From: Candidatus Pacearchaeota archaeon
GTDB taxonomy: Archaea > Nanobdellota > Nanobdellia > Pacearchaeales > GW2011-AR1
Assembly: GCA_018304145.1 (NCBI GenBank)
Contig: JAGVWU010000001.1
Location: 144-64,143, forward strand
Reading direction: 5' to 3'
Length of the DNA stretch: 64,000 nucleotides
In this document: one piece after another, positions 3,720 to 55,110 of the stretch
Numbering within the stretch: the first letter of the stretch is position 1
How the letters are laid out: every line of letters starts with the position of its first letter
Notes under the pieces: model-generated
Database searches by the model: none
What the model was told of the DNA's origin: nothing
What the model saw: the letters and a program-made list of their open reading frames with translations, nothing else
Position numbers and translations under genes: made by a program

Positions 3720-4091
3720 ATGCCTCATAAATGCACACAATGCGGAAAATTGTATCCTGACGCAGCTTCAGAATTATTGAAAGGCTGTGAATGCGGGAGC
3801 AAATTTTTCTATTATATCAGAGAGGAAAAATTCCATGAACTTCAGGACATAGTTACTGAACTTAAGGATATAGACAAGATACAGATTGAAAAAGATATAA
3901 GAGAGGTAACTGAACAAAAACCTGATGAACCTGTTATTCTGGATTTGGAATCTGTAAAAATAATAGAACCTGGAAAATTTGAGATTGATATTTTGAATTT
4001 ATTCTCAAAAAAAAGAGTTCTTGTCTATGAATTAGAGGAAGGAAAATATATAATAGATTTGGCTTCGTCTCTTAAGAAAGATAAAAGATGA
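3720..4091 (+). CDS. Zn-ribbon protein
   Basis: N-terminal CTQCG...(15)...CECG four-Cys ribbon followed by an acidic region. Third gene of the GTPase / small-protein / Zn-ribbon same-strand trio. Confidence 0.45.
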   Translation: MPHKCTQCGKLYPDAASELLKGCECGSKFFYYIREEKFHELQDIVTELKDIDKIQIEKDIREVTEQKPDEPVILDLESVKIIEPGKFEIDILNLFSKKRVLVYELEEGKYIIDLASSLKKDKR

Positions 4092-4237
4092 TTTTTAATT
4101 ATTAGTTAATATCATGTGTGATAGGAAGAGTAAAGTCGGGTTTTTTAATCACATAACTCTTGCTTTTCTCACTCCACATTAATTTAATAATATTATATCA
4201 ACGGAAATAAATTTTTGGAAAATTTTTTCTTTGATAG

Positions 4238-9114: not shown

Positions 9115-9318
9115 TTATAATATTCTTTCCTCTAATTGAGGATTGTAAAGTGTTGATTGCAAAACTGGATGTCTAATTTTTTCAGCTGGCTGATTTAAAA
9201 ATTCTACTGTTTCTTCAGGAGTCATTGGTTTTGCAGATTCAGAAAATTTAAATCCTATTTCTCCCGAATAGGTTGTATTTAGTTGAGCTCTTGAATTATC
9301 CTTAACATCGGTTGTCAT
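9115..9318 (-). CDS. small hypothetical protein
   Basis: Its stop codon abuts the TrmB start codon, suggesting a translationally coupled position. No recognisable motif. Confidence 0.2.
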   Translation of the reverse strand: MTTDVKDNSRAQLNTTYSGEIGFKFSESAKPMTPEETVEFLNQPAEKIRHPVLQSTLYNPQLEERIL

Positions 9319-30788: not shown

Positions 30789-31067
30789 ATGAAACCACTA
30801 AAACCATCCCACAGAGAAAAGAAAAGATATATTTTGATTAAAGGCAGGGATGCTGACAAGAAAAATATTGATGAAGTTATTCTTGAATTTATAGGGGTTC
30901 TTGGTTATGCCGAAGCTTCGCCTAAAATTATAAAATCTGAAAAAGATAAGATTGTTTTAGCTGTAAACAGAGGAAGCTTGAACAAAATAAGGGCAAGTTT
31001 TTTAACCAGCAACAAAGATTTAAGAATTGAAAAAGTGAGTGGGAGTGTGGGAAAGGTGAAGAATTAA
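30789..31067 (+). CDS. RNase P protein subunit Pop5-like (tentative)
   Basis: N-terminal KPSHREKKRYILIKG resembles the Pop5 N-terminus (LPPS.R.K.RYI.F.I). Its position just upstream of psmA matches the archaeal exosome/proteasome superoperon. At 92 aa it is shorter than typical Pop5. Confidence 0.35.
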   Translation: MKPLKPSHREKKRYILIKGRDADKKNIDEVILEFIGVLGYAEASPKIIKSEKDKIVLAVNRGSLNKIRASFLTSNKDLRIEKVSGSVGKVKN

Positions 31068-31636
31068 GCGCTTGTTCTTGAGAAATCAAATAAAATTTTA
31101 AATTCATGAAAATCTTTTAAGCTGTAAAAGTTATCGCATCTTCTTGCAAGATGCTTGTCTCCAATACAAGCTGCGCAATTATTTTCAAGATCTATAAGGG
31201 GCAAATGAGTTCTTGTTTTTTTTTCAACCCTAATTTTATGACCGCAAATTTCATCAACAACATAAGTTATGCTTACATAATGCTCACATCCTTGATTTTC
31301 TTTTCCTGAACATTCCAAACATTTTGCATCTCCTTTTGATAATTGCATCCTTAAATCCCTTTTTCTTTTTGCTCTGCACCTTAGTGCACAAGTTCTATCA
31401 TAATAATCTTCACAATCTACATAAAAACTACAAGGATTTACAGAAACTTCTGCAGGATCTTCAGATTGTCCAGAGCTATTTGCTCCGTTGCATTGAAAGG
31501 CGCATTTATAGTTTATTGGTTCAAGATGGGATTTATGTAATAATCTTAAGTTATATATACATCTTCCAGAATTAATTTCTCTCGTTCCATGGTAAGTCCC
31601 TATAGTCTCTTCTGTAACCATTTCAAGCACTCTTTT
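31064..31636 (-). CDS. Cys-rich putative metal-binding protein
   Basis: More than 20 Cys in CxxC / CxC clusters (CAFQCNG, CALRCRAK, CLECSG, CAACIG). No radical-SAM CxxxCxxC. Start placed at internal MKRVLEM because the sequence upstream of it is AT-rich and promoter-like. Confidence 0.35.
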   Translation of the reverse strand, partial: KRVLEMVTEETIGTYHGTREINSGRCIYNLRLLHKSHLEPINYKCAFQCNGANSSGQSEDPAEVSVNPCSFYVDCEDYYDRTCALRCRAKRKRDLRMQLSKGDAKCLECSGKENQGCEHYVSITYVVDEICGHKIRVEKKTRTHLPLIDLENNCAACIGDKHLARRCDNFYSLKDFHEFKILFDFSRTSA

Positions 31637-31825
31637 CATATAATTTAAAAAAGAGAGTATATAATCATTTCTATAATTTATTGAGATAGGGGGTAAATTC
31701 GAAACCTTTAAAAATACACTTTTCTTACAATTTTTCGTAAGGAGAAACAAATAAGTTTCATTAACAAAGAAGAAATTCTTTATTATTTTCTTTGAATGAA
31801 ACAAAAATGATTATATTTAAGAAAA

Positions 31826-32545
31826 ATGGAAATACCAGACATGCAACATCAAGTAATGGGTTATGATAGAAGCGCAACCATGTTCTCGCCTGACGGGCAT
31901 ATTCTTCAGGTTGAATATGCTGAAAAAACTGTCAGATTAGGAACAGCAAGCATTGGAATAAATTGTTCAGATGGTGTATTAATAGTTGCTGACAAAGGAG
32001 TAAAAGACAGTTTGATTGTTCCTGAATCTGCTGACAAAATTTATGAAATAGATGAACATGTGATGGCAAGTGCTGCTGGATTTATCAGTGATGCAAGAAT
32101 TTTAATAAATCACATAAGAGTTTCTGCACAACAACACAGAGTTACTTACGATTCTCCTATTGATGTTGAAACAGTCATAAGGGAAATTGCAGACATTCAG
32201 CAGCAATATACGCAGCATCCGGGGGTAAGGCCTTTTGGAGTAGCGATAATAATTGCTGGAATTCAGGGCGGAGAATCAAAACTCTACACAAGCAATATAA
32301 CTGGAAATTATTTTGAATATCATGCTGTTGCAATTGGGGAAAATGATGAAAAAATAAAGGAAATCCTGAGAAAAAAATTCAGAAAAGATATGAAAATTGA
32401 AGAGGGAATAAAATTAAGCTTTGAAATTTTCAAGGAGATTATGAAAGACAAGTTTGATATAAATAGATTTAATGTTGTATATATAAATAAGGATGAAAAT
32501 AAACTTAAAAAATTAAAAACAGAGGATTTTAAGAAGTTTGAATAA
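31826..32545 (+). CDS. psmA: proteasome alpha subunit
   Basis: YDRSATMFSPDGHILQVEYA alpha-subunit signature. 239 aa. Confidence 0.9.
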   Translation: MEIPDMQHQVMGYDRSATMFSPDGHILQVEYAEKTVRLGTASIGINCSDGVLIVADKGVKDSLIVPESADKIYEIDEHVMASAAGFISDARILINHIRVSAQQHRVTYDSPIDVETVIREIADIQQQYTQHPGVRPFGVAIIIAGIQGGESKLYTSNITGNYFEYHAVAIGENDEKIKEILRKKFRKDMKIEEGIKLSFEIFKEIMKDKFDINRFNVVYINKDENKLKKLKTEDFKKFE

Positions 32546-32546
32546 G

Positions 32547-32804
32547 ATGAGACAAAGATTAGAAGTAAAATTATTGATAGGAAATAAAACCATTGTTGAT
32601 TTACAGGCTGAAACTGTTATTTCTCAAAGTTCTCCTGCAAATCCAATTAATATACTAAATATAGAAAAAGGTATTGATTTTGTAACTTCATATCAGCCTT
32701 TCAATGGAGTTCAAGATTTATATTTAAAATTAAGTAGGAAGGGTGAAGAAAGATCGCCTCAACATTACCAAATTCAAATTAAAGTAAAACCTAAAATAAA
32801 TTAA
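32547..32804 (+). CDS. small hypothetical protein inserted between psmA and SBDS gene
   Basis: 85-aa ORF that starts 2 nt after the psmA stop and ends 1 nt before the SBDS start. Composition is not low-complexity. No family recognised. Confidence 0.35.
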   Translation: MRQRLEVKLLIGNKTIVDLQAETVISQSSPANPINILNIEKGIDFVTSYQPFNGVQDLYLKLSRKGEERSPQHYQIQIKVKPKIN

Positions 32805-32805
32805 A

Positions 32806-33483
32806 ATGACCGACGTAATTTGCAGATACAAATCAGAGAAATTGAATTTTGAAACAATGGTAAATCTGGAAAATGCAATGAAAATGAAAAGGGGAGAGAA
32901 AATAAATATTAATGACGTTATTAGAGACAGGTTTGTTTATACTGACTTGAAAAAAGGCATGAGAGCAGGTTCTCCTGAAATGGAAAATGTTTTTGGAACA
33001 ACTGACTTTTTGCAGATTATGCAAAAGATTATCCAAAAAGGGCAATTAGAAACAACACAAGAATTTAGAGATGAAGCTCTTGAAACAAGAAGAAAACAAG
33101 TTGTGGAATTTTTATCTAAAAATGCAATGGATGCAAGAACTCTTCGACCTTTTACACCTGACATGATTGCAAATGCTATAAAAGAAGCAGGCGTTAAAAT
33201 TGACAACCAGTCTGTTGAAAAACAAATTGGAAGAATTATCGAGGAATTAAAAAAAATAATTCCAATCAAAATTGCAACCAAGAAAATAAGGATTAAGATA
33301 CCTCCTCAGTTCACTGGACAAACCTATGGCTTGGTTAATGAATACAAGGAGAAAGAAGAATGGTTTGCTGATGGAAATTTAGAGGTAGTTTTAAATATTC
33401 CAGTTGGCTTGCAGACAGAGTTTTATGATAAATTAAATTCCATAACACATGGAGCTGCTTTAACAAGCGAGATAAAAGAATAA
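32806..33483 (+). CDS. SBDS/Sdo1 family ribosome maturation protein
   Basis: MTDVICRYKS...VFGTTDFLQIMQKIIQKGQLETT matches the COG1500/SBDS N-terminal FYSH domain pattern. 225 aa. Canonical position after psmA. Confidence 0.65.
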   Translation: MTDVICRYKSEKLNFETMVNLENAMKMKRGEKININDVIRDRFVYTDLKKGMRAGSPEMENVFGTTDFLQIMQKIIQKGQLETTQEFRDEALETRRKQVVEFLSKNAMDARTLRPFTPDMIANAIKEAGVKIDNQSVEKQIGRIIEELKKIIPIKIATKKIRIKIPPQFTGQTYGLVNEYKEKEEWFADGNLEVVLNIPVGLQTEFYDKLNSITHGAALTSEIKE

Positions 33484-33627
33484 AATGATATCATTAATTA
33501 ATAAAACAATTAAAAGTGAAAAAATAGAAAGCCTAAGTTATGAATTGTAGGCAGAAATAAAAACAAATCACAGAAGCCACAAATTATTAAAATTAAACAT
33601 TACTAAAGATTAGAATAAAACAGTAAA

Positions 33628-34344
33628 ATGATATACAAAACAGAAGAAACAGAAAGTGAAAATAAGTTTGAAGAAAAAGAAACAAAAACAGAAAGAAGAC
33701 TGGTTATTCCCGGGGAAACTGTTGTCAGCGGTGAAGATTATCTTCCAGGAGATTTTACTAAAAAAGAAGGAAATGAAATTATTGCAAACAGATATGGGCT
33801 GGCTGAAATATCTGGAAGAGTTGTTAAAATAATTCCTATTTCAGGTGTTTTTGAGCCAAGAAGAGGAAATAATGTCATAGGCAGAGTCGAAGATATTAAT
33901 TTTTCCGGATGGATGATTGATATTGGAGGGCCTTATTCTTCATTCTTGCCTTTAATGGAATGCCCAAGATTCATAAACAGAAATAATATTGCTGAATTTG
34001 CAAATATTGGGGATGTCATTCATGCAAAAATACTAGGAGTCAAGAAAAGTGGAGCTGATTTAACTTTGAAATCAAGAGGATTAGGACCTTTAGAAGATGG
34101 AAGATTAATAAAAATAAATCCTCATAAAGTTCCAAGAGTAATTGGAAAAGAAGGAAGCATGATTAATATGATAAAGGATAATACAAAAACAGAAATAACA
34201 GTAGGGCAGAATGGATTCATATGGATAAAAGGAGAATTAGATGGAGAAGAAAAAGCTGAAAAATCAATCAATTTAATTGTTGAAGAATCTTCAAATGCAG
34301 GCTTGACTGAAAAAGTTGAAAAATTTCTTGGAGGGAAGAAATAA
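33628..34344 (+). CDS. rrp4: exosome RNA-binding subunit Rrp4 (S1 + KH)
   Basis: VIPGETV..GEDYLPG N-terminal domain, S1-like middle (GRVVKIIPISG...GNNVIGRV) and C-terminal KH GxxG (VIGKEGSMINMI). Canonical superoperon position. Confidence 0.75.
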   Translation: MIYKTEETESENKFEEKETKTERRLVIPGETVVSGEDYLPGDFTKKEGNEIIANRYGLAEISGRVVKIIPISGVFEPRRGNNVIGRVEDINFSGWMIDIGGPYSSFLPLMECPRFINRNNIAEFANIGDVIHAKILGVKKSGADLTLKSRGLGPLEDGRLIKINPHKVPRVIGKEGSMINMIKDNTKTEITVGQNGFIWIKGELDGEEKAEKSINLIVEESSNAGLTEKVEKFLGGKK

Positions 34345-34345
34345 A

Positions 34346-34537
34346 ATGGAACAAAAAAGAAAAAATTATTCATTATTTACGACTTATGATGGTAGAGGGA
34401 GAAGAGATATTGTATATCGTGAAGTTCGTGAAGGAACTGATAAAGTTTTTAATCAACCCACTGATTCAAGAGGAAAAAAATTATGTTCAAATGATCCTCA
34501 AATAAGATTAACTTTAGAGGTAAGAAATTGGATTTAA
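34346..34537 (+). CDS. small ORF between rrp4 and rrp41 (tentative)
   Basis: 63-aa ORF (MEQKRKNYS...) exactly filling the rrp4-rrp41 gap. Its stop abuts the rrp41 start. No motif recognised. Confidence 0.25.
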   Translation: MEQKRKNYSLFTTYDGRGRRDIVYREVREGTDKVFNQPTDSRGKKLCSNDPQIRLTLEVRNWI

Positions 34538-34538
34538 A

Positions 34539-35249
34539 ATGCCATACACAAAACGACCTGATAAGAGAAAATTTGATGAACTTAGGCCTATCAAAGCAGA
34601 AGTTGGAGTAATTCCAAATGCTGATGGAAGTGCTCTGTTTGCATTTGGTGGAACAGTTGCAATTGCTGCAATTTATGGTCCAAAACCATTGCATCCTCAG
34701 CATATGCAAGAACCTGACAGAGGAATTATAAGATGCAATTACAATATGCTTCCATTCTCGGTAACTGAAAGAGCAAAACCAGGACCAAACAGAAGGAGCA
34801 AAGAAATTTCAATGGTTGCTGGAAACGCATTAGCAAGTGTTGTTGATTTAACAAGATTTCCTGGAACTGTAATTGATGTTGATATATTAATTTTGCAGGC
34901 AAATGCTTCAACAAGATGCGCAGGAATAAATGCGGCTGCAATGGCATTGGCTCATGCAGGCATTGTTATGAAAGAAATGGTATCCAGTGTTTCAATTGGA
35001 AAAATCGATGATAAAATTGTTGTTGATTTAATAAAAGAAGAAGAAGATTGGGAAGAAGGAGAAGGTGCAACGGATATTCCATTTACAATGACCTCGAGGA
35101 CTCATCAGATAACTCATTTGCAATTAGATGGAAAAATACAAACTCATAGATTCAAAGAAGCAATGGAAGCTGCGAAAGAGGCTTGCAAGAAAATATTAAA
35201 ATATCAGGAAAGAGCATTGAAAGGAGAGAAGATTGATGAGACTAAATAA
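34539..35249 (+). CDS. rrp41: exosome catalytic subunit Rrp41 (RNase PH-like)
   Basis: KRPDKRKFDELRPIKAEVGVIPNADGSALFAFGGTVAIAAIYGPKP is a near-textbook archaeal Rrp41 N-terminus. 236 aa. Confidence 0.85.
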   Translation: MPYTKRPDKRKFDELRPIKAEVGVIPNADGSALFAFGGTVAIAAIYGPKPLHPQHMQEPDRGIIRCNYNMLPFSVTERAKPGPNRRSKEISMVAGNALASVVDLTRFPGTVIDVDILILQANASTRCAGINAAAMALAHAGIVMKEMVSSVSIGKIDDKIVVDLIKEEEDWEEGEGATDIPFTMTSRTHQITHLQLDGKIQTHRFKEAMEAAKEACKKILKYQERALKGEKIDETK

Positions 35250-35250
35250 A

Positions 35251-35565
35251 ATGGCCAAATATCAACAAGTAATAAGAGAACAATTAGAAAGAATGAATCC
35301 AGATGAATTAATGGCTCAATATCATTCATTAATTGATGTTTTCAAAGAAACAAGAGGAATTCCATTTGAAAGAAATCCTCAAACTCCAAGAGAAGAATTA
35401 ATTAGATTAATAGAAGCTGGACAAAGAAATTATTTAAAAGGTGAGATTACTGAGAGAAATATTTTAGATAGTTTAGATGTTTTAGCAGATCAATTAGTAG
35501 AATGGGGCGAAAGAACTGGAATGTCAGATAAACCTATTTTGGTTTCAGGAGGGCAAACACAATGA
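35251..35565 (+). CDS. hypothetical protein inserted between rrp41 and rrp42
   Basis: About 104 aa (MAKYQQVIREQLERMNPDEL...). It starts 2 nt after the rrp41 stop, and its TGA stop overlaps the rrp42 ATG (ATGA). It is Q/E/R-rich, unlike the surrounding K/N-rich proteins. No family recognised. Confidence 0.45.
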   Translation: MAKYQQVIREQLERMNPDELMAQYHSLIDVFKETRGIPFERNPQTPREELIRLIEAGQRNYLKGEITERNILDSLDVLADQLVEWGERTGMSDKPILVSGGQTQ

Positions 35566-36389
35566 AACTACCAAACATAAATAAAAGACGAATCATAACA
35601 CTTTTGAAAGAAGGAAAAAGATTAGATGGAAGAAAACCATTTGAACTTAGAGACATTGATATTGAAACTAGAGTTTCAATTAATGCTGAAGGAACTTCTC
35701 GTGTTAAAATAGGAAAAACAGAAGTTATTGTTGGTGTAAAAATGGACGTGCAAGAGCCGTATCCTGACCATGAAGACCAGGGAACAATGATAACATCAAT
35801 GGAATTTTCAGCTGCTTCTGGAGAGAGGCATGAATCAGGGCCTCCTCAAATGGATTCAATCGAAGTTGCAAGAGTTGTTGACAGAGGAATAAGAGAAAGC
35901 GGTTTCATTGACTGGAAAAAATTATGCATTAAAGAAGGAGAAAAAGTCTGGAGTGTTTTGATTGATATTTATTGCATTAATGATGATGGAAATGCTATGG
36001 ATGCAAGTGCTTTAGGAGCTGTTGCTGCATTAAAAGTTGCAAGATTTCCTGTGTATGATGAAAAAGAAGAAAGAGTAAAATTTGGAGAATTTACAGATAC
36101 TCCCTTACCATTGACTGAAAAACTGCCATTAACTTTAACTTTCCATAAAATAGGGGATAAATTAGTATTAGACCCAAATAGAGATGAAGAAGACTCTAGT
36201 GATGCAAGAATTACTTTAGCAGTTTCTTCTGTAAAAAAGGAAAAAATGATAAATGCAATGCAAAAAGGCGGAATAACTCCTTTTACAATTGAAGAAATGG
36301 AAAATGTTATTGAAGAAATTGAAAAAGCTTACGATAAGATATTGGCTGAAATAGAAAAAAAGATTAAACATATACTTAAGGAAAAGTAA
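35562..36389 (+). CDS. rrp42: exosome subunit Rrp42 (inactive RNase PH-like)
   Basis: KRRIITLLKEGKRLDGRKPFELRDIDIETRVSINAEGTSRVKIGKTEVIVGVK is typical of the archaeal Rrp42 N-terminus. 275 aa. Confidence 0.8.
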   Translation: MKLPNINKRRIITLLKEGKRLDGRKPFELRDIDIETRVSINAEGTSRVKIGKTEVIVGVKMDVQEPYPDHEDQGTMITSMEFSAASGERHESGPPQMDSIEVARVVDRGIRESGFIDWKKLCIKEGEKVWSVLIDIYCINDDGNAMDASALGAVAALKVARFPVYDEKEERVKFGEFTDTPLPLTEKLPLTLTFHKIGDKLVLDPNRDEEDSSDARITLAVSSVKKEKMINAMQKGGITPFTIEEMENVIEEIEKAYDKILAEIEKKIKHILKEK

Positions 36390-36407
36390 GTTTTATAAAG
36401 ATATATT

Positions 36408-36863
36408 TTGGAGTATAATAATATGGTAATTGAAAAACTCGAATTAAAATTTACAAAATATGAAATTGCAAGAATTTTAGGAGCTAGAAGTCTGCAATTA
36501 GCAATGGATGCTCCAATCCTTTTAAAATTAACAAAAGAAGAGGAAGAAGAATTAAATTATGATACCTTAAAAATAGCTGAAAAAGAGCTTGAGGCAGGTG
36601 TCCTTCCAATCACTGTAAAAAGGCCTTTACCTAAAAAATCAGAAAAAATAGTTAAAAAACTATCTGAAAAAGAAATAAAAGAAAAACTAGAAAAACAAGC
36701 TGAAGAAGAAAAAAAGCAAATGGAAGAGGAAAAAGAAGGGGTAAAAAATGAAGAAAAAGAGGAAAAAGAAATTACAGAAGAAGGGGAAATAATGGAAATA
36801 GCCAACCCCGAAGACGAAGCATTTTCAGAAAGTGAGAGTGAAAGTGAAGAAGAAATTGTTTAG
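36408..36863 (+). CDS. rpoK: RNA polymerase subunit Rpo6/RpoK with long K/E-rich acidic C-terminal extension
   Basis: KFTKYEIARILGARSLQLAMDAPILL matches the Rpo6/RPB6 core (TKYE.ARI.GARALQ). About 85 extra residues of KE-rich and acidic tail follow. Confidence 0.65.
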   Translation: MEYNNMVIEKLELKFTKYEIARILGARSLQLAMDAPILLKLTKEEEEELNYDTLKIAEKELEAGVLPITVKRPLPKKSEKIVKKLSEKEIKEKLEKQAEEEKKQMEEEKEGVKNEEKEEKEITEEGEIMEIANPEDEAFSESESESEEEIV

Positions 36864-36895
36864 TTCTTAGAATATAATTTATTCTGTTAAAATAT

Positions 36896-36925
36896 TTGTG
36901 GGGGGGTATTAATCCTTAGGATTAA
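36896..36925. repeat. TTGTGGGGGGGTA + 17-bp perfect palindrome TTAATCCTTAGGATTAA (copy A, putative recombination site)
   Basis: Palindrome at 36909-36925, preceded by a G7 run. The same palindrome recurs at 37894-37910. Confidence 0.6.
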
Positions 36926-36988
36926 GTTAGCTACATAAACCGAATAACTATAAGCTATTTTAGTTCAGGTTACGAATGGAGCGGTGAA

Positions 36989-37777
36989 CTAAACAGCTGG
37001 AAGATGAAGATAAACCTCTGCAGATCTGCTAGGAGTTTGTTTAAGTGGGATTACAAATCTTCTATCTTGCAATCCTAAATCTTCACTAGCCTTAAGAAGA
37101 ATATCGGGATTTGAATAACGTGGAACTATTCTACAAACTGGATGATCATGTTCACCTATAATTGATATTGATTGAGATAAAATTCCATGATTATTTTTCA
37201 GTTCATCTTGAAATTTACTGCAATATTGAGAATGACCTATATGTCCTGCTCCGCAATAAACTAATATTTTTGAAGATTGGTTAGTTTGTATTCTGGCTAG
37301 TAATCGTGCCCAAGCTTTATTTCTAACTTCTGGAGTTTCTTCAACATTGTCTAAATCTAATGCTATGACTTTCATCCCTGCGGATTTTGCAGCATCAATC
37401 ATTCCCAAATATAAATCTGGAAAGTTTTCGCCAAGCCGTGAGAATTCTTTTTGATGATAAGCCTTAATCTCATCAGGATTATCGCCTACACTGCAGTATC
37501 TGTCTATTGCTGGTTGCATTGATAATGATAACATTTCAGTTGCAAAATGTGTAATACCAAGACCCCAAAATTTGCTCATATTTTGTATGACTTCTTTTTT
37601 GGCTGCTTCACTGCCATGATACTCTCCAAAAAGAATTAGGGGTGCTAATCTAAAAAGAGGAGCATAATCTGCATCCTTTGGATTTGTTCTTTGAAGATAA
37701 GACAAAACTTCATCATAATTCGAATTAGAGTCATCAAATTCTTCTGTTCCAAATAGATTGTCTATAGTGTTGCTCAT
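36989..37777 (-). CDS. TraB/PrgY/GumN (TIKI-superfamily) protein
   Basis: LFGEYHGSEA (GxxH) near the N-terminus and VYCGAGHIGH (GAGH) near the C-terminus match the two conserved boxes of the TraB/PrgY pheromone-shutdown family. GC content is slightly higher than in neighbouring genes. Flanked by the two palindrome copies. Start placed at MSNTIDNLF. Confidence 0.45.
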   Translation of the reverse strand: MSNTIDNLFGTEEFDDSNSNYDEVLSYLQRTNPKDADYAPLFRLAPLILFGEYHGSEAAKKEVIQNMSKFWGLGITHFATEMLSLSMQPAIDRYCSVGDNPDEIKAYHQKEFSRLGENFPDLYLGMIDAAKSAGMKVIALDLDNVEETPEVRNKAWARLLARIQTNQSSKILVYCGAGHIGHSQYCSKFQDELKNNHGILSQSISIIGEHDHPVCRIVPRYSNPDILLKASEDLGLQDRRFVIPLKQTPSRSAEVYLHLPAV

Positions 37778-37884
37778 ATAAAAGGTTAAAATTAGAAGTT
37801 TATAAATCTTACTATATGTTACTACTACCTGATAACACATAATAATCCATTGCACAACAAATTTTCTAATATCTTGAGGAAAAA

Positions 37885-37928
37885 GTTGTGGACTTAATCC
37901 TTAGGATTAACTTATCGTGGGGGCGTTT
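37885..37928. repeat. TTGTGGAC + palindrome TTAATCCTTAGGATTAA (copy B) + TCGTGGGGGCGTTT (left copy of 14-bp direct repeat)
   Basis: Palindrome at 37894-37910 and 14-mer at 37915-37928, both read directly. Lies immediately upstream of the integrase gene. Confidence 0.6.
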
Positions 37929-37990
37929 GAGATTTGTTTGACACTCCTAACTAAGGCGGTTTTTAATAACAAAACCTCCTTATTTAAGGA

Positions 37991-39175
37991 ATGGAAGACA
38001 TACATAATTATAAACGAAGACTTGAAAGAACTCTCGAAAGGGTAAATAAACTTGATCTCTATCCAGAAGATAAGGAATTAATTTATAGATTCAAAGATCT
38101 TTGTATCTGTCAAAATATAAGTTATGGAAAATTAGATGCTTATCTATTCTATACAATAAAACTTACAAATTTCCTTCAAAAACCAATAAAGGAAGCCAAT
38201 AAAGAGGACATAATGAATGTTATAGCAAAACTTAATGAAACAAATTATAGTGAGCAAACCAAAAAATGTTTTAAAGTTTTACTTAAAAAATTATACAAAT
38301 ATATTAGAGGTATAGAAGGTAAAGGAGAATATCCTGAAGAGGTAAAATGGATGTCAACTACAATTTCTAGAAATCATCAAAAACTGCCTGATGAACTTAT
38401 TAATGAAAACGAAATAGAAAGTATTATTAGGGCTGCTCAAAATACGAGAGATAAAGCTTTAATTTCTATTCTTGCAGAATCAGGTTGCAGAGTTTCTGAA
38501 ATAGGTCTCATGAAAATAAAAAATGTTTCATTTGAAGAATATGGGACAAGAATAGCAGTTTCAGGAAAAACGGGATCAAGAAAAATATTAGTGATAAATA
38601 GTACACCTTATTTACAAGAGTGGATTAATCAACATCCATTAAATAACAATTCTGATTCTTTTCTATGGTACAATCCATTAAATAGCAAATATCTAAGTTA
38701 TACCCGAATTACCAGTATTCTAAAAACCGCAGCAAAAAGAGCAGGAATAAAGAAGAGAATTCATCCTCATTTGTTAAGGCATAGCAGAGCAACGAAAATG
38801 GCTACGGTAATGAGTGAAGCTTCCATGAAGCAATATTTTGGATGGACTCAGGGATCTTCAATGGCAGGAGTTTATGTTCATTTATCTGGAAAAGATACTG
38901 ATGATGCCATACTCAAAGCAAATGGAATTGAAATAACAAAAAAAGAAATGATTATAACAAAAATGAAACCTATTATTTGCAATAGATGTAAAACATCAAA
39001 CGAAGCAACAAATAGATTCTGTAAAATATGCGGTCTTCCTTTAACAAAGGAGATTGCAGAAGAAACAATAAAAGAAGATTCTGAAAAGAAAAAGTTTGAG
39101 GATATATTAGAAATTGCTTTATCGGATAAAAAAGTATTAGAAATGATTAAAGAGAAGATGAAAGTAATTTTATAG
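37991..39175 (+). CDS. tyrosine recombinase / integrase (XerC/D-phage integrase family) with C-terminal Zn ribbon
   Basis: Box I ESGCRVSEI (catalytic Arg), box II HPHLLRHSRATKMA (H-x-x-R-H) and catalytic Tyr in GVYVHL. C-terminal CNRCK...CKICG ribbon. Confidence 0.8.
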   Translation: MEDIHNYKRRLERTLERVNKLDLYPEDKELIYRFKDLCICQNISYGKLDAYLFYTIKLTNFLQKPIKEANKEDIMNVIAKLNETNYSEQTKKCFKVLLKKLYKYIRGIEGKGEYPEEVKWMSTTISRNHQKLPDELINENEIESIIRAAQNTRDKALISILAESGCRVSEIGLMKIKNVSFEEYGTRIAVSGKTGSRKILVINSTPYLQEWINQHPLNNNSDSFLWYNPLNSKYLSYTRITSILKTAAKRAGIKKRIHPHLLRHSRATKMATVMSEASMKQYFGWTQGSSMAGVYVHLSGKDTDDAILKANGIEITKKEMIITKMKPIICNRCKTSNEATNRFCKICGLPLTKEIAEETIKEDSEKKKFEDILEIALSDKKVLEMIKEKMKVIL

Positions 39176-48929: not shown

Positions 48930-51923
48930 TTACTTTTTATTCAGCCTCTTGTACACTTTATCTAGCATCCAGTCTTTGACAGTTTCTGCAAAATCTTTGT
49001 CATCCATTATTTTCTTAAATATGTCTTGATTTTGCTCCATACGGTCTATAACCTTATTGATAAATACATCTTGAAAACCATATTTAAAGTTCTCAACAGA
49101 ATTTGTTTTTGCTTGTTTTGAAAGTTTTTCGTCAGCAACAAGTTCTTCTTCAATTTGGTCAAAAAATAGTTTATCTGCTTCTGTAAAATCTGTTCCAAAC
49201 CTTTCATTTAAAATCTTAATTATTTCTGAAAGTTTTGCATATTCTTCTTTTTCTTCTCTTACCCCTGCAGTATTAAGTGGTTTTAACCATCCTTCTTTTC
49301 CTTTTTCTAGTGATATACTTCCCTCATTTATTTTTTGAAGTCTGTAATATTCTAATGCAACTTCATCACCAAGTTTAAATCTTTCAGATAAATCTTTTCT
49401 AGGCAGTTTATTTACTAATAATCTTCCATAAGCATAAAACTTTTCTAAATCACTGTCTTGAAAAGGCATAATTTGGGATAAAAAAGAATATACTCTTAAG
49501 AAAACAGTCAACATATGTTTAAATTCCTCTTGTTTTTCTGTTTTATCTATTGCTCTAAATCTTGAAACTGCTGGGTCTATATACGAGTTTAATAATGAAT
49601 GGTCTTTAATTGATTGATATTTTGCTGATTTAAAAAACACTTTACAGAAGTTTTCGACATCTAACTTATCAATAACCCCTCTTTCTTCTATCTTATATTT
49701 TAAGTCATAGAGTTTATTTGGGTCTGTTGTTTCTTCAAGGAGTGTAATCTCATAATAGGGTTGGAAAGCATTAATTATATCTGAATCATCATTTACAAAA
49801 TCTAAAATAAAGGTATCTTCTTTTCCCGGACAAGTCCTATTTAATCTTGATAGAGTTTGAACTGCTTTTATTCCTGATAACTTTTTATCCACATACATAG
49901 TATGCAGAAGTGGTTGGTCATAACCTGTTTGATATTTATCAGCAACTAACAATAATTGGTATTCATTAGTATTAAATTTATCAGGAAGTTCTTTTTCACC
50001 AAACTGATTCATTTTTGGTTCTGTATATTCTTTTCCATCTTTTACTATTCCTGAAAATGCAACAATAGCCTTGATGTCGTTATATTTATTCTTTTTAAGA
50101 TAATCATCAAATTCTCTCTTGTACCTAACTACGTGAAGCCTTGAAGGAGTAATAACCATTGCTTTTGCCTTACCTCCAATTTTTTTCATTGTAACTTGTC
50201 TAAAATGCTCTATCATAACTTCTGTTTTTTGTGCGAGATTATGAGGATGTAAAGCAACAAATCTTGCTATCGCTCTTTTTGCCTTTTTCTTGTTTATTTT
50301 TGGGTCATCTTCGATTTGTTTGGATAATCTAAAGAAAGTTTGGTAGGTTGTATAATTTTTAAGAACATCTATAATGAAACCCTCTTCTATTGCCTGCCTC
50401 ATAGAATATAAATGAAATGGTTCTGGCTTTCCAGTTATTTTGTTTTTAACACCAAAAATTTCAAGGGTTTTTGCTTTTGGTGTTGCAGTAAATCCAAAAA
50501 AACTTAAATTTTTATGCATCCCTCTTGCTTCCATAGATTTTCTTATTTCATCTTCTGTATCTACTTGTTTTTCTAGTTCTGTTGAATCTTTTTTTATTGC
50601 TTCATCAAAATCTTTATAACTCAAGACTTCTTTCATTTTTTTAGATGCCTCTCCACCTTGTGAAGAGTGTACTTCATCTATAATCAGAGCATAATTTCTT
50701 TTTGGAAGTTCACCTATTGTTTCAATAATATAGGGGAATTTCTGTAAGGTTGTTATAATAATTTTTGTTCCAGACTTTAATGCTTCAGATAGTTGTTTGG
50801 AATTTTTATCTATTTTTTCAACTACTCCTTTTTTATGCTCAAACTGATAAATAGTATTTTGAAGTTGTTGGTCTAAAACTAATCTATCAGTAACTACAAT
50901 AATTGAATCAAATACAGGTTTGTCTTTTTTATTGTGCAAACTTGATAATCTATAAGCAAGCCACGCAATAGAATTACTCTTGCCACTTCCTGCTGAATGT
51001 TGAATCAAATAGTTTTTTCCAGTTCCATTTTCTTTTGTATCTGCCTCTAATTTTAGAACACAATCTAATTGATGGTAACGAGGAAAAAGCATTGATTCTT
51101 TTTTTATTGTTTTTCCTTCAATCTTAAATTCTTCAATTTGGATGTGCATAAACCTTCCAACAATATCCATAAAACTATCTCTCTCTAAAATTTCTTCCCA
51201 TAGATAAGAAGTTTTGTAACCTTTGGGATTTGAGGGATTTCCAGCACCATTTTCAAAGCCCTTATTAAATGGCAAGAACTTAACATCTCCTTCAAGTTTT
51301 GTTGTTAAAAAAATATTATCTGTATCAACAGCAAAATGAACTAATGCTCTTTTCTTAAACTGGAATATTAATTCATTGGGGTCGCGATCTTCTTTGAATT
51401 GTCTTTTTGCATTTTCAACATCTTGTCCTGTAAATTGATTTTTTAATTCAATTGTAGCGATAGGCAGTCCATTAATTGAAATCAACATATCAAGAGAATT
51501 TTCATTCTTCAAGCTGTATTTTACCTGTCGTGTCAAGGTCAACTTATTCATCTGATATAATTTTTCTGTCTGGGGATTTAACCCACTCGCAGGTCTAAAA
51601 AAAGCAATCTTAAATCTTACCCCATAATCAATAATTCCATTTCTTAAAACATCAAGTGTACCTCTGCTATCAAGTTCCTTAACTAATCTTTGTAAGAATT
51701 TTGTTTCAACATCTACTCTATGAATACCAGATAGTTTTTTCCATTCATTTGGTTGACTTTCTTTAATAAAAGAAAAAAGAACATTTGTATCCAATGCAAT
51801 TTCTTTATTGAAATCTTTTGCATTTCCTTTAAGAAAACCACCTTTATCTTTACCTGTTAAAAAATCCTCTATAGCTGTTTCAAAAGCTTTTTCATTTGTT
51901 ATTGACACCATCTTTTTATTCAC
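48930..51923 (-). CDS. hsdR: Type I restriction enzyme R subunit
   Basis: SF2 helicase motif I QHSAGSGKSNS and motif II IIDEVH. 997 aa. N-terminal nuclease region. Overlaps the hsdS 3' end. Confidence 0.85.
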   Translation of the reverse strand: MNKKMVSITNEKAFETAIEDFLTGKDKGGFLKGNAKDFNKEIALDTNVLFSFIKESQPNEWKKLSGIHRVDVETKFLQRLVKELDSRGTLDVLRNGIIDYGVRFKIAFFRPASGLNPQTEKLYQMNKLTLTRQVKYSLKNENSLDMLISINGLPIATIELKNQFTGQDVENAKRQFKEDRDPNELIFQFKKRALVHFAVDTDNIFLTTKLEGDVKFLPFNKGFENGAGNPSNPKGYKTSYLWEEILERDSFMDIVGRFMHIQIEEFKIEGKTIKKESMLFPRYHQLDCVLKLEADTKENGTGKNYLIQHSAGSGKSNSIAWLAYRLSSLHNKKDKPVFDSIIVVTDRLVLDQQLQNTIYQFEHKKGVVEKIDKNSKQLSEALKSGTKIIITTLQKFPYIIETIGELPKRNYALIIDEVHSSQGGEASKKMKEVLSYKDFDEAIKKDSTELEKQVDTEDEIRKSMEARGMHKNLSFFGFTATPKAKTLEIFGVKNKITGKPEPFHLYSMRQAIEEGFIIDVLKNYTTYQTFFRLSKQIEDDPKINKKKAKRAIARFVALHPHNLAQKTEVMIEHFRQVTMKKIGGKAKAMVITPSRLHVVRYKREFDDYLKKNKYNDIKAIVAFSGIVKDGKEYTEPKMNQFGEKELPDKFNTNEYQLLLVADKYQTGYDQPLLHTMYVDKKLSGIKAVQTLSRLNRTCPGKEDTFILDFVNDDSDIINAFQPYYEITLLEETTDPNKLYDLKYKIEERGVIDKLDVENFCKVFFKSAKYQSIKDHSLLNSYIDPAVSRFRAIDKTEKQEEFKHMLTVFLRVYSFLSQIMPFQDSDLEKFYAYGRLLVNKLPRKDLSERFKLGDEVALEYYRLQKINEGSISLEKGKEGWLKPLNTAGVREEKEEYAKLSEIIKILNERFGTDFTEADKLFFDQIEEELVADEKLSKQAKTNSVENFKYGFQDVFINKVIDRMEQNQDIFKKIMDDKDFAETVKDWMLDKVYKRLNKK

Positions 51924-53250
51924 TCCTTAAATCAATTTTACCTGTGACTGCCTCGTATATCAATGAAGTCTTATACTCATTTAATAGCTCTATCTCTTTT
52001 TCTATTTTACTAACGGTTTTATCTATTTTAGAGGTTTCGGTTTCAATGTAATATACAATTTGTTGTTGCTCTGGAAGGGGTGGAATAGGAATAAATATCT
52101 CTTTAACATTACTGCTATTTAAATGTGGATGGAGAGCTCCTGTTTGTATAGATTTTAAACTATGAAATCCAAAATTAGAATTTAAAAGAAAGGAAAAGAA
52201 TTTGCTATTAATAGTCTTTTTAGGTGTAATTAAAATAAGTGCGTGGCAATTACAACCTACAAATTCTTCATTTACTACTGCTACTTGACCAATATCCCCA
52301 GTTTGTACAATTAAAATATCATTTTTTTGTAAAATAGACCTTGAATGTTCATTTGACCATTCTTCAGAAACATAATAAGGATGATTGAATATAATTTGAT
52401 TGTTTTTAATATGCAATGATTGTATATATCTTATTCCCTTATCTTTTAGAATGTCTCTCGTTGGACCAACATAACCATTTGTAATTTTATCGCAAATCCT
52501 ACTAATTATTGAAGTTTCCCACTTTTCAGGTATAAATCCAATCCATTCTATTCCTGAATCTTTCATTTTTGCTTTTGTATTAATACCTTTTGTTACAGAA
52601 TTATTAATTAAAGATTGTCTTTTTTCTTTTAATAATTCAATTAATTTTTCTTTTTTAGAAACTAATTTTTCAATAAATAAAGTATATTTATCAAGATATT
52701 TTGATATTATTTCTTGTTCTTTAAGTGGAGGTAATATTACCAAAGCATTTCTAAATTCATCTCTACCCAAAATTTGTCTTGTAGTTCCCTTACAATTAGC
52801 AGAAAAATAAAAAAGAACATTAGGATTATTACACAAATATTTTTTATAAGAATGATTGACTTCATTTTTAAATTCAAATCTTAAAACGTGATAACTAAAT
52901 ACAGTATTGGGTAATTCACAATCAATAACAGCTGATAGTCCAATATCTATTTCTGTTTCAGAACTGGGGGTAAATATTAAATCTCCTTTTTTAACAGGAT
53001 GTTTTTCTTTTTGTTCTTCTGATACAGAAACAACCATATATTCCCTTTTATCATCTAAAACTTTATCCTTATTTCCATAAATATTCATATAATTAATCAT
53101 TTTTACTAACGGTTGATTGGGCAGTGTTTTTTTATCTATACCACTGGATGAAAATTTACCAATATTTCCTAATCTTGTCACATCCCAATCTTCAGGTATT
53201 TTTCCAACCCAATTAATTAAAGAATCCTTGTATTTTGGATATGGTTTCAT
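51916..53250 (-). CDS. hsdS: Type I restriction-modification specificity subunit
   Basis: Two target-recognition halves, each followed by a conserved LPPL(K/P)EQ(E/Q)xI repeat. N-terminal INWVGKIPEDWDV is typical of HsdS. Confidence 0.75.
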   Translation of the reverse strand: MKPYPKYKDSLINWVGKIPEDWDVTRLGNIGKFSSSGIDKKTLPNQPLVKMINYMNIYGNKDKVLDDKREYMVVSVSEEQKEKHPVKKGDLIFTPSSETEIDIGLSAVIDCELPNTVFSYHVLRFEFKNEVNHSYKKYLCNNPNVLFYFSANCKGTTRQILGRDEFRNALVILPPLKEQEIISKYLDKYTLFIEKLVSKKEKLIELLKEKRQSLINNSVTKGINTKAKMKDSGIEWIGFIPEKWETSIISRICDKITNGYVGPTRDILKDKGIRYIQSLHIKNNQIIFNHPYYVSEEWSNEHSRSILQKNDILIVQTGDIGQVAVVNEEFVGCNCHALILITPKKTINSKFFSFLLNSNFGFHSLKSIQTGALHPHLNSSNVKEIFIPIPPLPEQQQIVYYIETETSKIDKTVSKIEKEIELLNEYKTSLIYEAVTGKIDLRSE

Positions 53251-53251
53251 T

Positions 53252-54973
53252 TTATTTAATGATTTCTTTCATCATACCTTCAGTTTGTTTTTCTAATTCT
53301 AAAATATCTTTCTTTATTTGTTCAAGAGTTCTTAAAGGTTTAAATTCGTAGAAATATTTTGTAAAGCTTATTTCATATCCTTTTCTTGTTTTTGTTTCAT
53401 CAATCCAAGCATCAGGATTATAGGGTAAAACCTCTCTTTCGAAATACTTTTTTATATCTTCTTTAAGAGGAACATTTTCTGTATCTCTTAAATCTGAGTC
53501 TGATTTAGGTTTACCATTTTTATCTTTAACGACCTTCCCATTTTCAATCAAAGGTCTTTCAACTGTAATTTGCCAATATCCAAAATCCTCATTATCAAAA
53601 ATCTTACAATATTTATTTTCCTTGAAATCTCCATAGATATTTGTTATTTCTTCAATATGATTTTTTCCAATCTCATTTCTTTTGTTGCCTAAACTTTTTT
53701 TCATCTTATTATAAAAACTAATAGCATTAATCAATTGAACCTTTCCTTTTCTTTCTTTAGGTTTCCTATTTGTAACAATAAAAACATAAGTAAAAATCCC
53801 AGTATTATAGAAAAGTTGGTCAGGCATAGCAATAATTGCTTCAAGCCAGTCATTTTCAATTATCCATTTTCTTATATCACTTTCCCCACTTCCTGCACCA
53901 CCTGAAAATAATGGAGAGCCATTAAAAACAATACCAATTCTTGAACCACTATTTGAAGGTTTCATTTTAGAAATCATATGTTGCAAGAATAATAAAGAGC
54001 CATCACTGATTCTCGGAAGTCCTGCACCAAATCTTCCCTCAAATCCATTTTCTTCATACTCATTTTTAATCTGCTTTTCAACTTTTTTCCATTCAACTCC
54101 GAAAGGTGGATTTGAAAGCATATAATCGAACTTTTCATTTATTAACCCATCATTTGAAAAAGAATTTCCAAGAATAATATTTGACATATTCTGCCCTTTA
54201 ATTAACATATCAGATTTACATATAGCATAAGATTCAGGATTAAGTTCCTGACCAAAAACCTCAAGTCTTGAATCTGGATTAAATTCACGCAAATATTCTT
54301 CTGCAATGGATAACATTCCACCAGTTCCACAGGCAGGGTCATATAGCGTCTTGACAATTCCTTCTTTGGTAAGTATATCTTTATCATCCATAAACAAAAG
54401 ATTAACCATAAGTCTTATTACCTCTCTAGGTGTAAAATGCTCTCCTGCTGTTTCATTAGATAGTTCTGAAAACTTCCTAATCAACTCTTCAAAGATATAA
54501 CCCATCTGAATGTTGTTAACCTTACTGGGATGTAAATCAATTTCAGAAAACTTTTGTATAATCAGGTAAAGCAAGTCTGCCTCATCTAATTTGTTGATGT
54601 GTTCTTCAAATCCAAAGTGTTCTATTATCTCTCTTGCATTATCTGAAAATCCGTTTATGAAATCTTTAAGGTTTGCGGCAATATGTTCAGGGTCGGATTT
54701 AAATTTTTCAAAAGTGAACTTGCTCTTGTTATGAAAGTTTAACCCTGCAATGTTGTTCAATACTGGGTCTATGTTTTGAATTTTCTTTTCTTTTATTTTT
54801 GGAAGATAATCCAAGACCTTTTGTTTGGTTGGTTCAAGAACACAATCCAGCCTTCTTAAAATTGTTAGGGGAAGAATTACTTTGCCATAGTCTGCCTGTT
54901 TATAATCACCTCTTAATAAATCTGCAACACTCCAGATAAAGTTCGCTAAATCATTTACTTTTATTTGTTCCAT
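53252..54973 (-). CDS. hsdM: Type I restriction-modification N6-adenine DNA methyltransferase subunit
   Basis: N-terminal HsdM domain (FIWSVADLLRGDYK), SAM motif I DPACGTGGML and catalytic NPPFG. Start placed at MEQIKVNDL. The upstream ORF start at 55039 is less likely. Confidence 0.85.
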   Translation of the reverse strand: MEQIKVNDLANFIWSVADLLRGDYKQADYGKVILPLTILRRLDCVLEPTKQKVLDYLPKIKEKKIQNIDPVLNNIAGLNFHNKSKFTFEKFKSDPEHIAANLKDFINGFSDNAREIIEHFGFEEHINKLDEADLLYLIIQKFSEIDLHPSKVNNIQMGYIFEELIRKFSELSNETAGEHFTPREVIRLMVNLLFMDDKDILTKEGIVKTLYDPACGTGGMLSIAEEYLREFNPDSRLEVFGQELNPESYAICKSDMLIKGQNMSNIILGNSFSNDGLINEKFDYMLSNPPFGVEWKKVEKQIKNEYEENGFEGRFGAGLPRISDGSLLFLQHMISKMKPSNSGSRIGIVFNGSPLFSGGAGSGESDIRKWIIENDWLEAIIAMPDQLFYNTGIFTYVFIVTNRKPKERKGKVQLINAISFYNKMKKSLGNKRNEIGKNHIEEITNIYGDFKENKYCKIFDNEDFGYWQITVERPLIENGKVVKDKNGKPKSDSDLRDTENVPLKEDIKKYFEREVLPYNPDAWIDETKTRKGYEISFTKYFYEFKPLRTLEQIKKDILELEKQTEGMMKEIIK

Positions 54974-55110
54974 ACCCAAACACCTATTATTATTACTATA
55001 ATAGGTTCTATTTAAAGTTATTTTAGACCATTTAGCCACCTAGTGCAAAGCTTTGCTTCTTATGGCGGCTTTTTTATATTTTTTGTTAATTTTATATTAT
55101 ATAAAATGGA

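Follow-up and report, generated by a model that had tools for sequence, protein, structure and literature searches.

The locus

We analyzed a 64-kb stretch of DNA (the whole of which is called the window here) from a Pacearchaeota (DPANN) archaeon, a tiny groundwater archaeon with an AT-rich genome (about 30% GC in the window), and focused on the exosome/proteasome superoperon at positions 30789–36863 of its plus strand. The cluster consists of a Pop5-like gene, psmA, SBDS, rrp4, rrp41, rrp42 and rpoK, and it contains three extra small open reading frames (ORFs) at the psmA/SBDS, Rrp4/Rrp41 and Rrp41/Rrp42 junctions, which we call ORF-A, ORF-B and ORF-C. The features are the following (lengths in amino acids, aa, or nucleotides, nt).

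30789–31067, plus strand: Pop5-like gene (RNase P component 2-like), 92 aa, first in the cluster; NCBIfam RNase P component 2 at E 5e-5, under the curated cut-off
31064–31804, minus strand: ORF of a Cys-rich gene, the true start of which is likely the ATG at 31639 (191 aa)
31826–32545, plus strand: psmA, proteasome alpha subunit; Pfam Proteasome 1.3e-49 and Proteasome_A_N 1.5e-11
32547–32804, plus strand: ORF-A, 85 aa, psmA/SBDS junction; TAA-G-ATG on the 5' side and TAA-A-ATG on the 3' side
32806–33483, plus strand: SBDS orthologue; Pfam SBDS_N, SBDS_domain_II and SBDS_C
33484–33627, no strand: non-coding spacer between SBDS and rrp4, 144 nt, free of ORFs
33628–34344, plus strand: rrp4, exosome cap subunit; Pfam KH_6, KH_1, ECR1_N_2 and RRP4_S1
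34346–34537, plus strand: ORF-B, 63 aa, Rrp4/Rrp41 junction; TAA-A-ATG at either side
34539–35249, plus strand: rrp41, exosome RNase PH ring subunit; Pfam RNase_PH 4.9e-31 and RNase_PH_C
35251–35565, plus strand: ORF-C, 104 aa, Rrp41/Rrp42 junction; ATGA overlap with rrp42
35562–36389, plus strand: rrp42, exosome RNase PH ring subunit; Pfam RNase_PH 2.3e-27 and RNase_PH_C
36408–36863, plus strand: rpoK; NCBIfam RpoK 3.2e-18, residues 14–73 only

An earlier note, made from the letters of this DNA, had named the order psmA, SBDS, rrp4, rrp41, rrp42 and rpoK, and we found this order to be right in its coordinates and supported by Pfam and NCBIfam; the canonical members psmA to rrp42 are co-directional on the plus strand in an order that is common to about 50 related loci. 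The Pop5-like label at the head of the cluster stands less firmly, because the gene is present where it had been placed, and its position is kept in most relatives, but its family match is weak and sub-threshold. No Rpp30 was found upstream of psmA, where the minus-strand Cys-rich gene lies instead. The three small ORFs are likewise present at the junctions named for them, with the sizes of 85, 63 and 104 aa. All of them lie on the same strand as the operon with a spacing of 1 nt or a 4-nt overlap at both sides: each ORF starts one base past the upstream TAA (TAA-N-ATG), and ORF-A and ORF-B stop one base before the next ATG. For ORF-C, stop/start overlaps had been claimed on both sides; the overlap exists at rrp42 (ATGA), whereas at rrp41 the ATG start leaves a 1-nt spacer and an overlap would require the upstream TTG at 35233. 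ORFs that lie flush in this way leave no space for promoters or terminators, and the 144-nt spacer between SBDS and rrp4 is the sole junction from psmA to rrp42 that is roomy enough for an internal promoter.

Coding capacity of the three ORFs

We calculated for each ORF the chance that a dinucleotide shuffle keeps the frame open and obtained values of 0.00045 for ORF-A, 0.00345 for ORF-B and 0.00015 for ORF-C, which gives a joint chance of about 2e-10 for all three frames. A codon log-odds score trained on the long ORFs of the window was 0.39, 0.46 and 0.53 bits per codon for ORF-A, ORF-B and ORF-C in frame, and was negative in all five other frames of each of them. For reference, chunks of 63 codons from real genes score 0.35 (standard deviation 0.13), and spurious ORFs have a mean of −0.09 and a maximum of 0.36. 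A 12-kb region is 100% identical at the DNA level across the JGI, ENA and Logan assemblies, which come from different samples; the identity in three independent assemblies therefore shows that the arrangement is not an assembly artefact. The genome recurs at groundwater sites that include JGI 3300025317, SRR2177952, SRR3989314 and the Hainich H43 samples.

The composition of the predicted proteins sets them partly apart from their neighbours. ORF-C is rich in Q, E and R compared to its K/N-rich neighbours, as had been noted before (Q+E+R 28.8% versus 16–20%, K+N 7.7% versus 11–16%), and the ratio R/(R+K) is Arg-biased in ORF-C (0.69) and ORF-B (0.64) compared to 0.33–0.39 in the neighbours. 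ORF-A is basic (isoelectric point 9.6) and predicted to be beta-rich, ORF-B is basic (isoelectric point 9.8) and Arg-rich, and ORF-C is acidic. The GC content and the codon usage of the inserts are host-like.

One could object that these frames stay open by chance in enlarged non-coding spacers, or that they stem from errors of assembly, since they are short, homologues of ORF-A and ORF-B are missing and the structural model of ORF-A is of low confidence. We consider this highly improbable in view of the joint open-frame chance, the frame-specific codon signal and the three identical assemblies; in addition ORF-C belongs to a conserved family, and the junction ORFs of relatives score as coding in 93% of the cases on the same strand and in none on the opposite strand. 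The codon, shuffle, assembly and strand evidence effectively refutes the artefact. Judged from their sequence, ORF-A, ORF-B and ORF-C are real protein-coding genes that are very unlikely to be open by chance.

The junctions in close relatives

A scan with Rrp41 yielded 64 loci, of which about 52 are archaeal and carry the same operon; the near relatives of the window are metagenome-assembled Pacearchaeota/Nanoarchaeia (DPANN) genomes. By comparing all proteins of the window with these about 52 loci using tblastn we found every canonical gene, and none of ORF-A, ORF-B and ORF-C. The closest relative (locus L001), the Rrp41 of which is 96% identical at the amino acid level with about 85% nucleotide identity, was aligned gene by gene with the window. 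It keeps an intact operon with direct junctions at all three ORF sites:

psmA/SBDS: gap of 2 nt in L001 and 258 nt in the window
Rrp4/Rrp41: TAATG overlap in L001 and gap of 193 nt in the window
Rrp41/Rrp42: spacer of 43 nt in L001 and gap of 310 nt in the window

The Rrp4/Rrp41 junction is direct in a second relative, L069, too. The comparison of these junctions in related genomes, which had been proposed as a check, thus shows the ORFs to be lineage-specific and the junctions to be direct elsewhere (all three in L001, Rrp4/Rrp41 in L069).

For ORF-A we observed no homologue in a search of 5.8 billion proteins, in the about 52 related loci, in viral contigs or among PDB sequences. The sole match of ORF-B in the 5.8-billion-protein search is itself with one substitution, and none was found in the about 52 loci, the viral contigs or the PDB sequences, so that ORF-B is specific to the lineage of the window. 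None of the three ORFs has a family match in Pfam, NCBIfam, PHROGs or PADLOC, and none has relatives in the viral-contig scans. When we searched the window and all loci for paralogues, source sequences and repeats of the inserts, only short matches at chance level were observed. The single-sequence AlphaFold model of ORF-A is unusable with a predicted local distance difference test (pLDDT) of 42. The earlier note had suggested that the small ORFs could encode lineage-specific accessory factors of the exosome or the proteasome. For ORF-A and ORF-B this suggestion is not supported, and the result that the note itself had named as refuting it was obtained: L001 has direct junctions at both sites, L069 has one at Rrp4/Rrp41, and no protein homologues were found in the searched sets.

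The ORF-C family

In the search of 5.8 billion proteins ORF-C matches itself and a variant with 88% identity, and phmmer over 1.84 billion representatives returned nine small relatives of 52–111 aa that are 39–88% identical (E 6e-53 to 5e-5). They share the motif QY(H/Q)SL...G(I/L)PFERNP...ELI..I..GQ, and L20, Q23, Y24, L27, F39, E40, R41, P43 and L50 are invariant in the alignment of 10 sequences. ORF-C therewith belongs to a small, previously unnamed family of 80–110-aa proteins with an N-terminal helical domain. Using the family alignment, AlphaFold predicted four helices (residues 9–14, 17–35, 47–62 and 68–89) with a pLDDT of 72.8, and of 80–93 over the first 60 residues. The profile and structure predictions that had been recommended for the 104-aa and 85-aa proteins therefore gave a confident N-terminal helical model for ORF-C, while the model of ORF-A was uninformative; neither protein showed a family match, and ORF-C showed no fold match. 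More precisely, the ORF-C family profile found only noise in Pfam and among PDB sequences (E of at least 0.005), and a Foldseek search of the ORF-C model against PDB and BFVD gave no usable match (best E 0.29–1.6). Faint Foldseek matches to a Rho-N-terminal-like fold (E 4–7) were disregarded. A metagenome scan with the ORF-C profile returned only Hainich contigs that were already known, and ORF-C was found neither in L001 nor in any GTDB representative locus.

Members of the family occupy the Rrp41/Rrp42 junction in the window, L065, L069–L071 and L073. The homologues in L069–L071 and L073 are 39–51% identical to ORF-C, and the flanking Rrp41 and Rrp42 are 85–91% and 80% identical. Other relatives lie elsewhere: before an RpoL-like gene (L072), with unannotated genes near a prepilin peptidase (L075–L077) and beside SOD/RFC genes (L078–L080), and the relative in L074 is likewise outside the Rrp41/Rrp42 junction. 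Wherever the context can be read the neighbour genes are archaeal. A neighbour-joining tree calculated from five concatenated operon proteins has the topology (((window, L065), L001), L069), L073. Since this tree nests L001 inside the clade that bears ORF-C, it implies that the gene was present in the ancestor of the clade and was lost in L001.

We then compared the pairwise ratio of non-synonymous to synonymous substitutions (dN/dS) and observed values of 0.48–1.0 for ORF-C, compared to 0.04–0.2 for Rrp41/Rrp42 in the same genome pairs at similar dS. By parts, the N-terminal 62 codons of ORF-C show 0.3–0.65 and the C-terminal part about 1. By these values ORF-C is a real, weakly constrained and fast-evolving gene.

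In the accessory-factor reading at least one of the small proteins, with ORF-C as the best candidate, would be a subunit peculiar to this lineage that binds and modulates the exosome (the Rrp41/Rrp42 ring) or else the proteasome. We regard such an accessory role as unlikely. L001 is without all three genes and its operon is nevertheless intact, which weighs strongly against an essential role. Homologues of ORF-C do sit at Rrp41/Rrp42 in the window and in all the relatives named above, its N-terminal helical domain is conserved, well modelled and has a dN/dS below 1, and the gene is tied to rrp42 by the ATGA overlap and an embedded Shine–Dalgarno motif; however, relatives of ORF-C occur away from exosome genes as well, and the constraint on ORF-C is 3–10 times weaker than that on Rrp41/Rrp42. 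RNA binding would be in keeping with the basic character of ORF-A and ORF-B and with the Arg-rich composition of ORF-B, and relatives carry an RNA-binding CsrA domain at another junction of the operon. Co-occurrence with the operon is not seen, though: ORF-A and ORF-B are present in 0 of 52 related loci, ORF-C is missing from L001, and other genomes have unrelated ORFs at the same junctions. Moreover, we found no likeness to Csl4, DnaG, PAN or assembly chaperones in Pfam, NCBIfam and PDB, by sequence or by fold. For ORF-C the accessory-factor proposal is thus not refuted outright, given the homologues at the same junction in relatives, but the loss in L001, the unrelated contexts and the weak constraint speak against it.

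Two further loci bear on the history of the family. From about codon 21 of ORF-C onward, across rrp42 and rpoK, the 2-kb contig L065 has the same sequence as the window. In its positions 1–450 the first 20 codons of ORF-C differ at 12 positions, and upstream of them lie a non-coding stretch and a divergent gene, with no rrp41. Recombination, giving a mosaic, or rearrangement could account for L065, or else the contig is chimeric. In L009 we observed an ORF of 101 aa at Rrp41/Rrp42 (6692–6997) that has the same AGGIQ tail, and the last 22 nt of which are nearly the same as those of L073. Its relationship to ORF-C was not demonstrable by hmmsearch (E 9) or hhalign (probability 0.6%), and it is either a relative of ORF-C that diverged past recognition or the likeness reflects a shared rrp42 translation-initiation region.

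Junction inserts across the lineage

Next, we surveyed the junctions from psmA to rpoK in 51 related loci, defining a gap of at least 150 nt as expanded and considering plus-strand ORFs of at least 40 aa. Expanded gaps were observed at 81 of 234 junctions (35%), so the view that insertions in this operon are unusual does not apply to Pacearchaeota. In 90% of the expanded junctions plus-strand ORFs fill at least 70% of the gap, with a median coverage of 94%. Together with the three ORFs of the window the junction ORFs fall into 78 BLASTP families, 69 of which are singletons, and all nine recurrent families are confined to one junction each. The plus-strand junction ORFs have a mean score of 0.39 bits per codon and 93% of them lie above 0.2, compared to a mean of −0.24 for minus-strand ORFs in the same gaps, none of which exceeds 0.2. 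Only one of 63 representatives outside the CsrA-domain group has a Pfam match (a cupin). The forms TAA-A-ATG and ATGA are the general gene-junction form in these genomes and constitute no special cassette signature.

The largest junction family consists of CsrA-domain proteins of 79–127 aa at SBDS/Rrp4 (PF02599, E 1.1e-18), which are found in 10 loci and are sometimes paired in tandem. With CsrA, an RNA-binding regulator of bacterial type lies within the exosome operon of an archaeon. The family is absent from the window, which has the 144-nt spacer at this junction. A further recurrent family of 124–141 aa without a Pfam match occurs at the Rrp42/RpoK junction of at least 7 relatives; in the window this junction is a direct gap of 18 nt. 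The loci of both families are the following.

CsrA-domain proteins, SBDS/Rrp4: L003 (for example 3756–4118), L005, L007, L010, L011, L014, L022, L024, L025 and L026
Family of 124–141 aa, Rrp42/RpoK: L003, L008, L011, L013, L015, L024 and L025, and probably L069 (1989–2390)

As dozens of unrelated ORFs occupy the same junctions in relatives, the position in the operon is weak evidence of function.

A pattern of this kind could also arise if the inserts were selfish or horizontally delivered cassettes (from a virus, a plasmid or an integron-like system) that target junctions, perhaps via TAA-A-ATG microhomology. The same 7-nt syntax does surround nearly all junction ORFs, but it is simply the general junction syntax of these genomes. 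Likewise, a tyrosine integrase is encoded 1.1 kb downstream of the operon, at the end of the synteny with L001, but it is a separate gene beyond the operon. ORF-C relatives in several unrelated contexts and the atypical Arg/Lys usage of ORF-B and ORF-C would fit mobility; on the other hand, the GC content and codon usage of the inserts are host-like, and recurrent families are never observed at two different junctions. The inserts and their surroundings contain neither repeats nor attC-like sites, no terminal inverted repeats and no domains of nucleases or recombinases, and there are no PHROG, PADLOC or viral-contig matches. A mobile or virus-derived origin is therefore, in our judgement, improbable.

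Putative signals for translational coupling

A scan for Shine–Dalgarno motifs showed that the last codons of rrp4 hold a GGAGG, 10 nt before the start of ORF-B; the same GGAGG at the end of rrp4 directly precedes rrp41 in L001 and L069. The last codons of ORF-C (…SGGQTQ) contain AGGAGG, 8 nt before the ATG of rrp42. A GG C-terminal tail with GGAGG is found in all ORF-C members known at the Rrp42 junction (L069, L073) and in none of those known elsewhere.

In L001 we observed two copies of an element of about 40 nt, one at SBDS/Rrp4 (2264–2300) and one at Rrp41/Rrp42 (3728–3770), the second of which sits exactly where the window has ORF-C. In the element an inverted repeat, CCTTTT..AAAAGG, precedes TTTTATCCAAAAAC, which is placed about 23 nt ahead of the ATG, and no copies of it were found in the other loci or the window. 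It resembles an internal promoter that would yield leaderless transcripts of rrp4 and rrp42, and the way in which these two genes are driven may therefore differ between close relatives.

Such signals raise the possibility that the act of translating the ORFs matters and not their products, i.e. that the ORFs are translated spacers which set the reinitiation and the stoichiometry of SBDS, Rrp41 and Rrp42. Weak constraint at the protein level would then follow, since only the act of translation would count; the dN/dS of about 1 in the C-terminal part of ORF-C agrees with this, whereas its N-terminal domain is conserved at the protein level even in family members outside the operon, and the codon usage of all three ORFs is fully gene-like. 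The stop–start junctions that are flush on both sides, the AGGAGG at the 3' end of ORF-C, the GG tail and GGAGG kept in L069, L073 and even the unrelated-looking ORF of L009, and the promoter-like element at Rrp41/Rrp42 of L001, which suggests alternative ways to drive rrp42, are all in line with a role in cis. However, a spacer needs no 63–104 open codons in an AT-rich genome, and many relatives manage without any spacer. We consider a purely cis-acting role to be quite unlikely.

Interpretation

Our findings suggest that ORF-A, ORF-B and ORF-C, which are real genes, are probably orphan passengers within the superoperon and not dedicated subunits of the exosome or the proteasome. L001 is without all three of them and unrelated small genes occupy the junctions of other relatives, and we therefore understand them as passengers with a fast turnover and not as parts of either complex. 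The passengers would be transcribed on the polycistronic mRNA of the operon, using the operon promoter because the flush junctions have no room for one of their own, and would be translated by termination–reinitiation at the TAA-N-ATG or ATGA junctions. Each ORF would form a link in the coupling chain, with ORF-B following the GGAGG of rrp4 and ORF-C supplying the AGGAGG for rrp42. Genes at these junctions turn over quickly in Pacearchaeota. A long, constitutive and co-directional operon would tolerate inserts on the same strand and would express a newcomer that has no promoter, and exchange between strains could make use of the strongly conserved genes on either side as homology arms.

Several points weigh against this explanation. 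We infer co-transcription and translational coupling from the spacing alone. Spread by homologous recombination is hinted at by one mosaic contig, L065, which is possibly an assembly chimera. ORF-A could be a gain in the lineage of the window or a loss in L001, and no donor sequence was found in the window and the loci for any of the three inserts. The position of ORF-C next to rrp42 in four lineages and the purifying selection on its N-terminal part are compatible with a possibly exosome-linked role. Finally, recurrent gene pairs outside the operon were too few in the fetched loci for a comparison of the junction-ORF density.

The junction hot spot across the lineage is a more interesting lead than the three ORFs themselves. 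Going further, the superoperon junctions of Pacearchaeota could be a nursery or landing pad, of which about one third carry coupled orphan ORFs (78 families in 52 genomes) that are gained, diverge beyond recognition and are lost at the pace of species divergence. The flanks would provide the arms for recombination and the operon would supply expression at no cost; ORF-C and the CsrA-domain genes would perhaps have been recruited as modulators of RNA decay. We put this broader picture forward tentatively and regard it as doubtful in its full extent.

Comparison with known systems

The nearest described phenomenon comes from Escherichia coli and Bacillus subtilis, for which Price, Arkin and Alm (2006; PMC1480536) reported that ORFan genes are often inserted into native operons, the promoter of which they then use. 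Like those genes, the present ORFs are lineage-restricted, inserted and without homologues, and their function is not necessarily related to the operon: we found no homologue outside close relatives, the ORFs lie on the same strand with operon spacing, and the native gene pair is adjacent at all three sites in L001 and at Rrp4/Rrp41 in L069. In contrast to those cases we are dealing with an archaeal host and with an operon that ranks among the best conserved of the Archaea; the ORFs lie inside it, flush on both sides, instead of being appended at the end, and the density is high, with 35% of the junctions and 78 families across relatives. New here is the ORF-C protein family; otherwise the three ORFs are an instance of a known phenomenon, namely orphan passengers in an operon. 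The same study showed that operon position had misled the annotation of flhE and btuE (PMC1480536), and a corresponding warning applies here, as a place in a famous operon does not make a subunit and guilt by association would mislabel all three ORFs.

Looser analogies are phage morons and flexible genomic islets. Phage morons and small phage ORFans resemble the present ORFs in being small, fast-evolving genes between conserved, packed and co-directional genes, with presence and absence differing among close relatives. They differ in that morons typically have their own promoter and terminator, for neither of which the present ORFs leave room, and in that we are dealing with a cellular genome and observed no PHROG or viral-contig similarity. 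Flexible genomic islets are a concept from pangenomes and comprise variable content between conserved core genes that is exchanged by homologous recombination. The superoperon junctions are similar in holding different, non-homologous content at one site between conserved flanks, and the mosaic L065 hints at recombination, but the content is a single ORF of 60–130 aa inside an operon and not a multi-gene island. Integron cassettes share the small, mostly orphan ORFs on the same strand and their high turnover. Here, there are no attC-like sites, which excludes integron cassettes, nor is there intergenic space or an adjacent integron integrase, and the ORFs are interleaved with essential core genes. 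The exosome partners Rrp4, Csl4 and DnaG and the superoperon members Rpp30, L37Ae and RpoP are alike only in being encoded in the superoperon or near it: ORF-A, ORF-B and ORF-C showed no likeness to any of them in sequence, profile or fold. ORF-C has no Cys and ORF-B a single one, and therefore neither is a zinc-ribbon protein like L37Ae or RpoP.

With six conserved genes and five junctions in dozens of genomes, the superoperon offers a compact and alignable system in which to follow how small genes of ultra-small archaea arise, diverge and disappear. It would also show in what way newcomers become part of translational coupling, for instance by Shine–Dalgarno motifs in last codons. The ORF-C family in turn is a new small family with a confidently modelled N-terminal helical domain, and it is directly testable for exosome binding.

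Other features of the window

The canonical place of Rpp30, between the Pop5-like gene and psmA, holds on its minus strand a Cys-rich gene of 191–246 aa that was absent from the earlier note. The gene is real, as is shown by a homologue with 32% identity (E 9e-25) in the corresponding position of L009; it is called as 191 aa in L066, and similar Cys-rich ORFs lie at the corresponding place in L004 and L020. The gene has no family match in Pfam, NCBIfam, PHROGs or PADLOC and is not present in L001. We had considered a conserved stretch in L001 as a remnant of this gene and hence as a sign of deletion, and rejected this: since the Cys-rich gene probably starts at 31639, the stretch is more simply a shared psmA upstream region.

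At the other end of the operon, the product of rpoK extends beyond the RpoK models into an acidic, Glu/Lys/Ser-rich C-terminal tail of about 75 aa. The L001 alignment ends at 36890, just past rpoK, which is thus the last gene syntenic with L001. Beyond this point we observed a minus-strand gene of 288 aa with a weak Cofac_haem_bdg match, the tyrosine recombinase/integrase at 37991–39175, 1.1 kb beyond the operon, and a 456-aa protein without assignment. The region 36890–39175 may be an integrated element that borders the operon. Scans of the whole window with Rfam models and for tRNAs gave zero tRNA genes and zero Rfam matches at the gathering threshold. The sole other small ORF in the 64 kb that lies flush with a gene is one of 67 aa on the minus strand (9115–9318), 1 nt from a 261-aa gene. 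Three large and tightly packed minus-strand genes (997, 444 and 595 aa) at 48930–55039 look like a type I restriction–modification system, by their size and arrangement alone.

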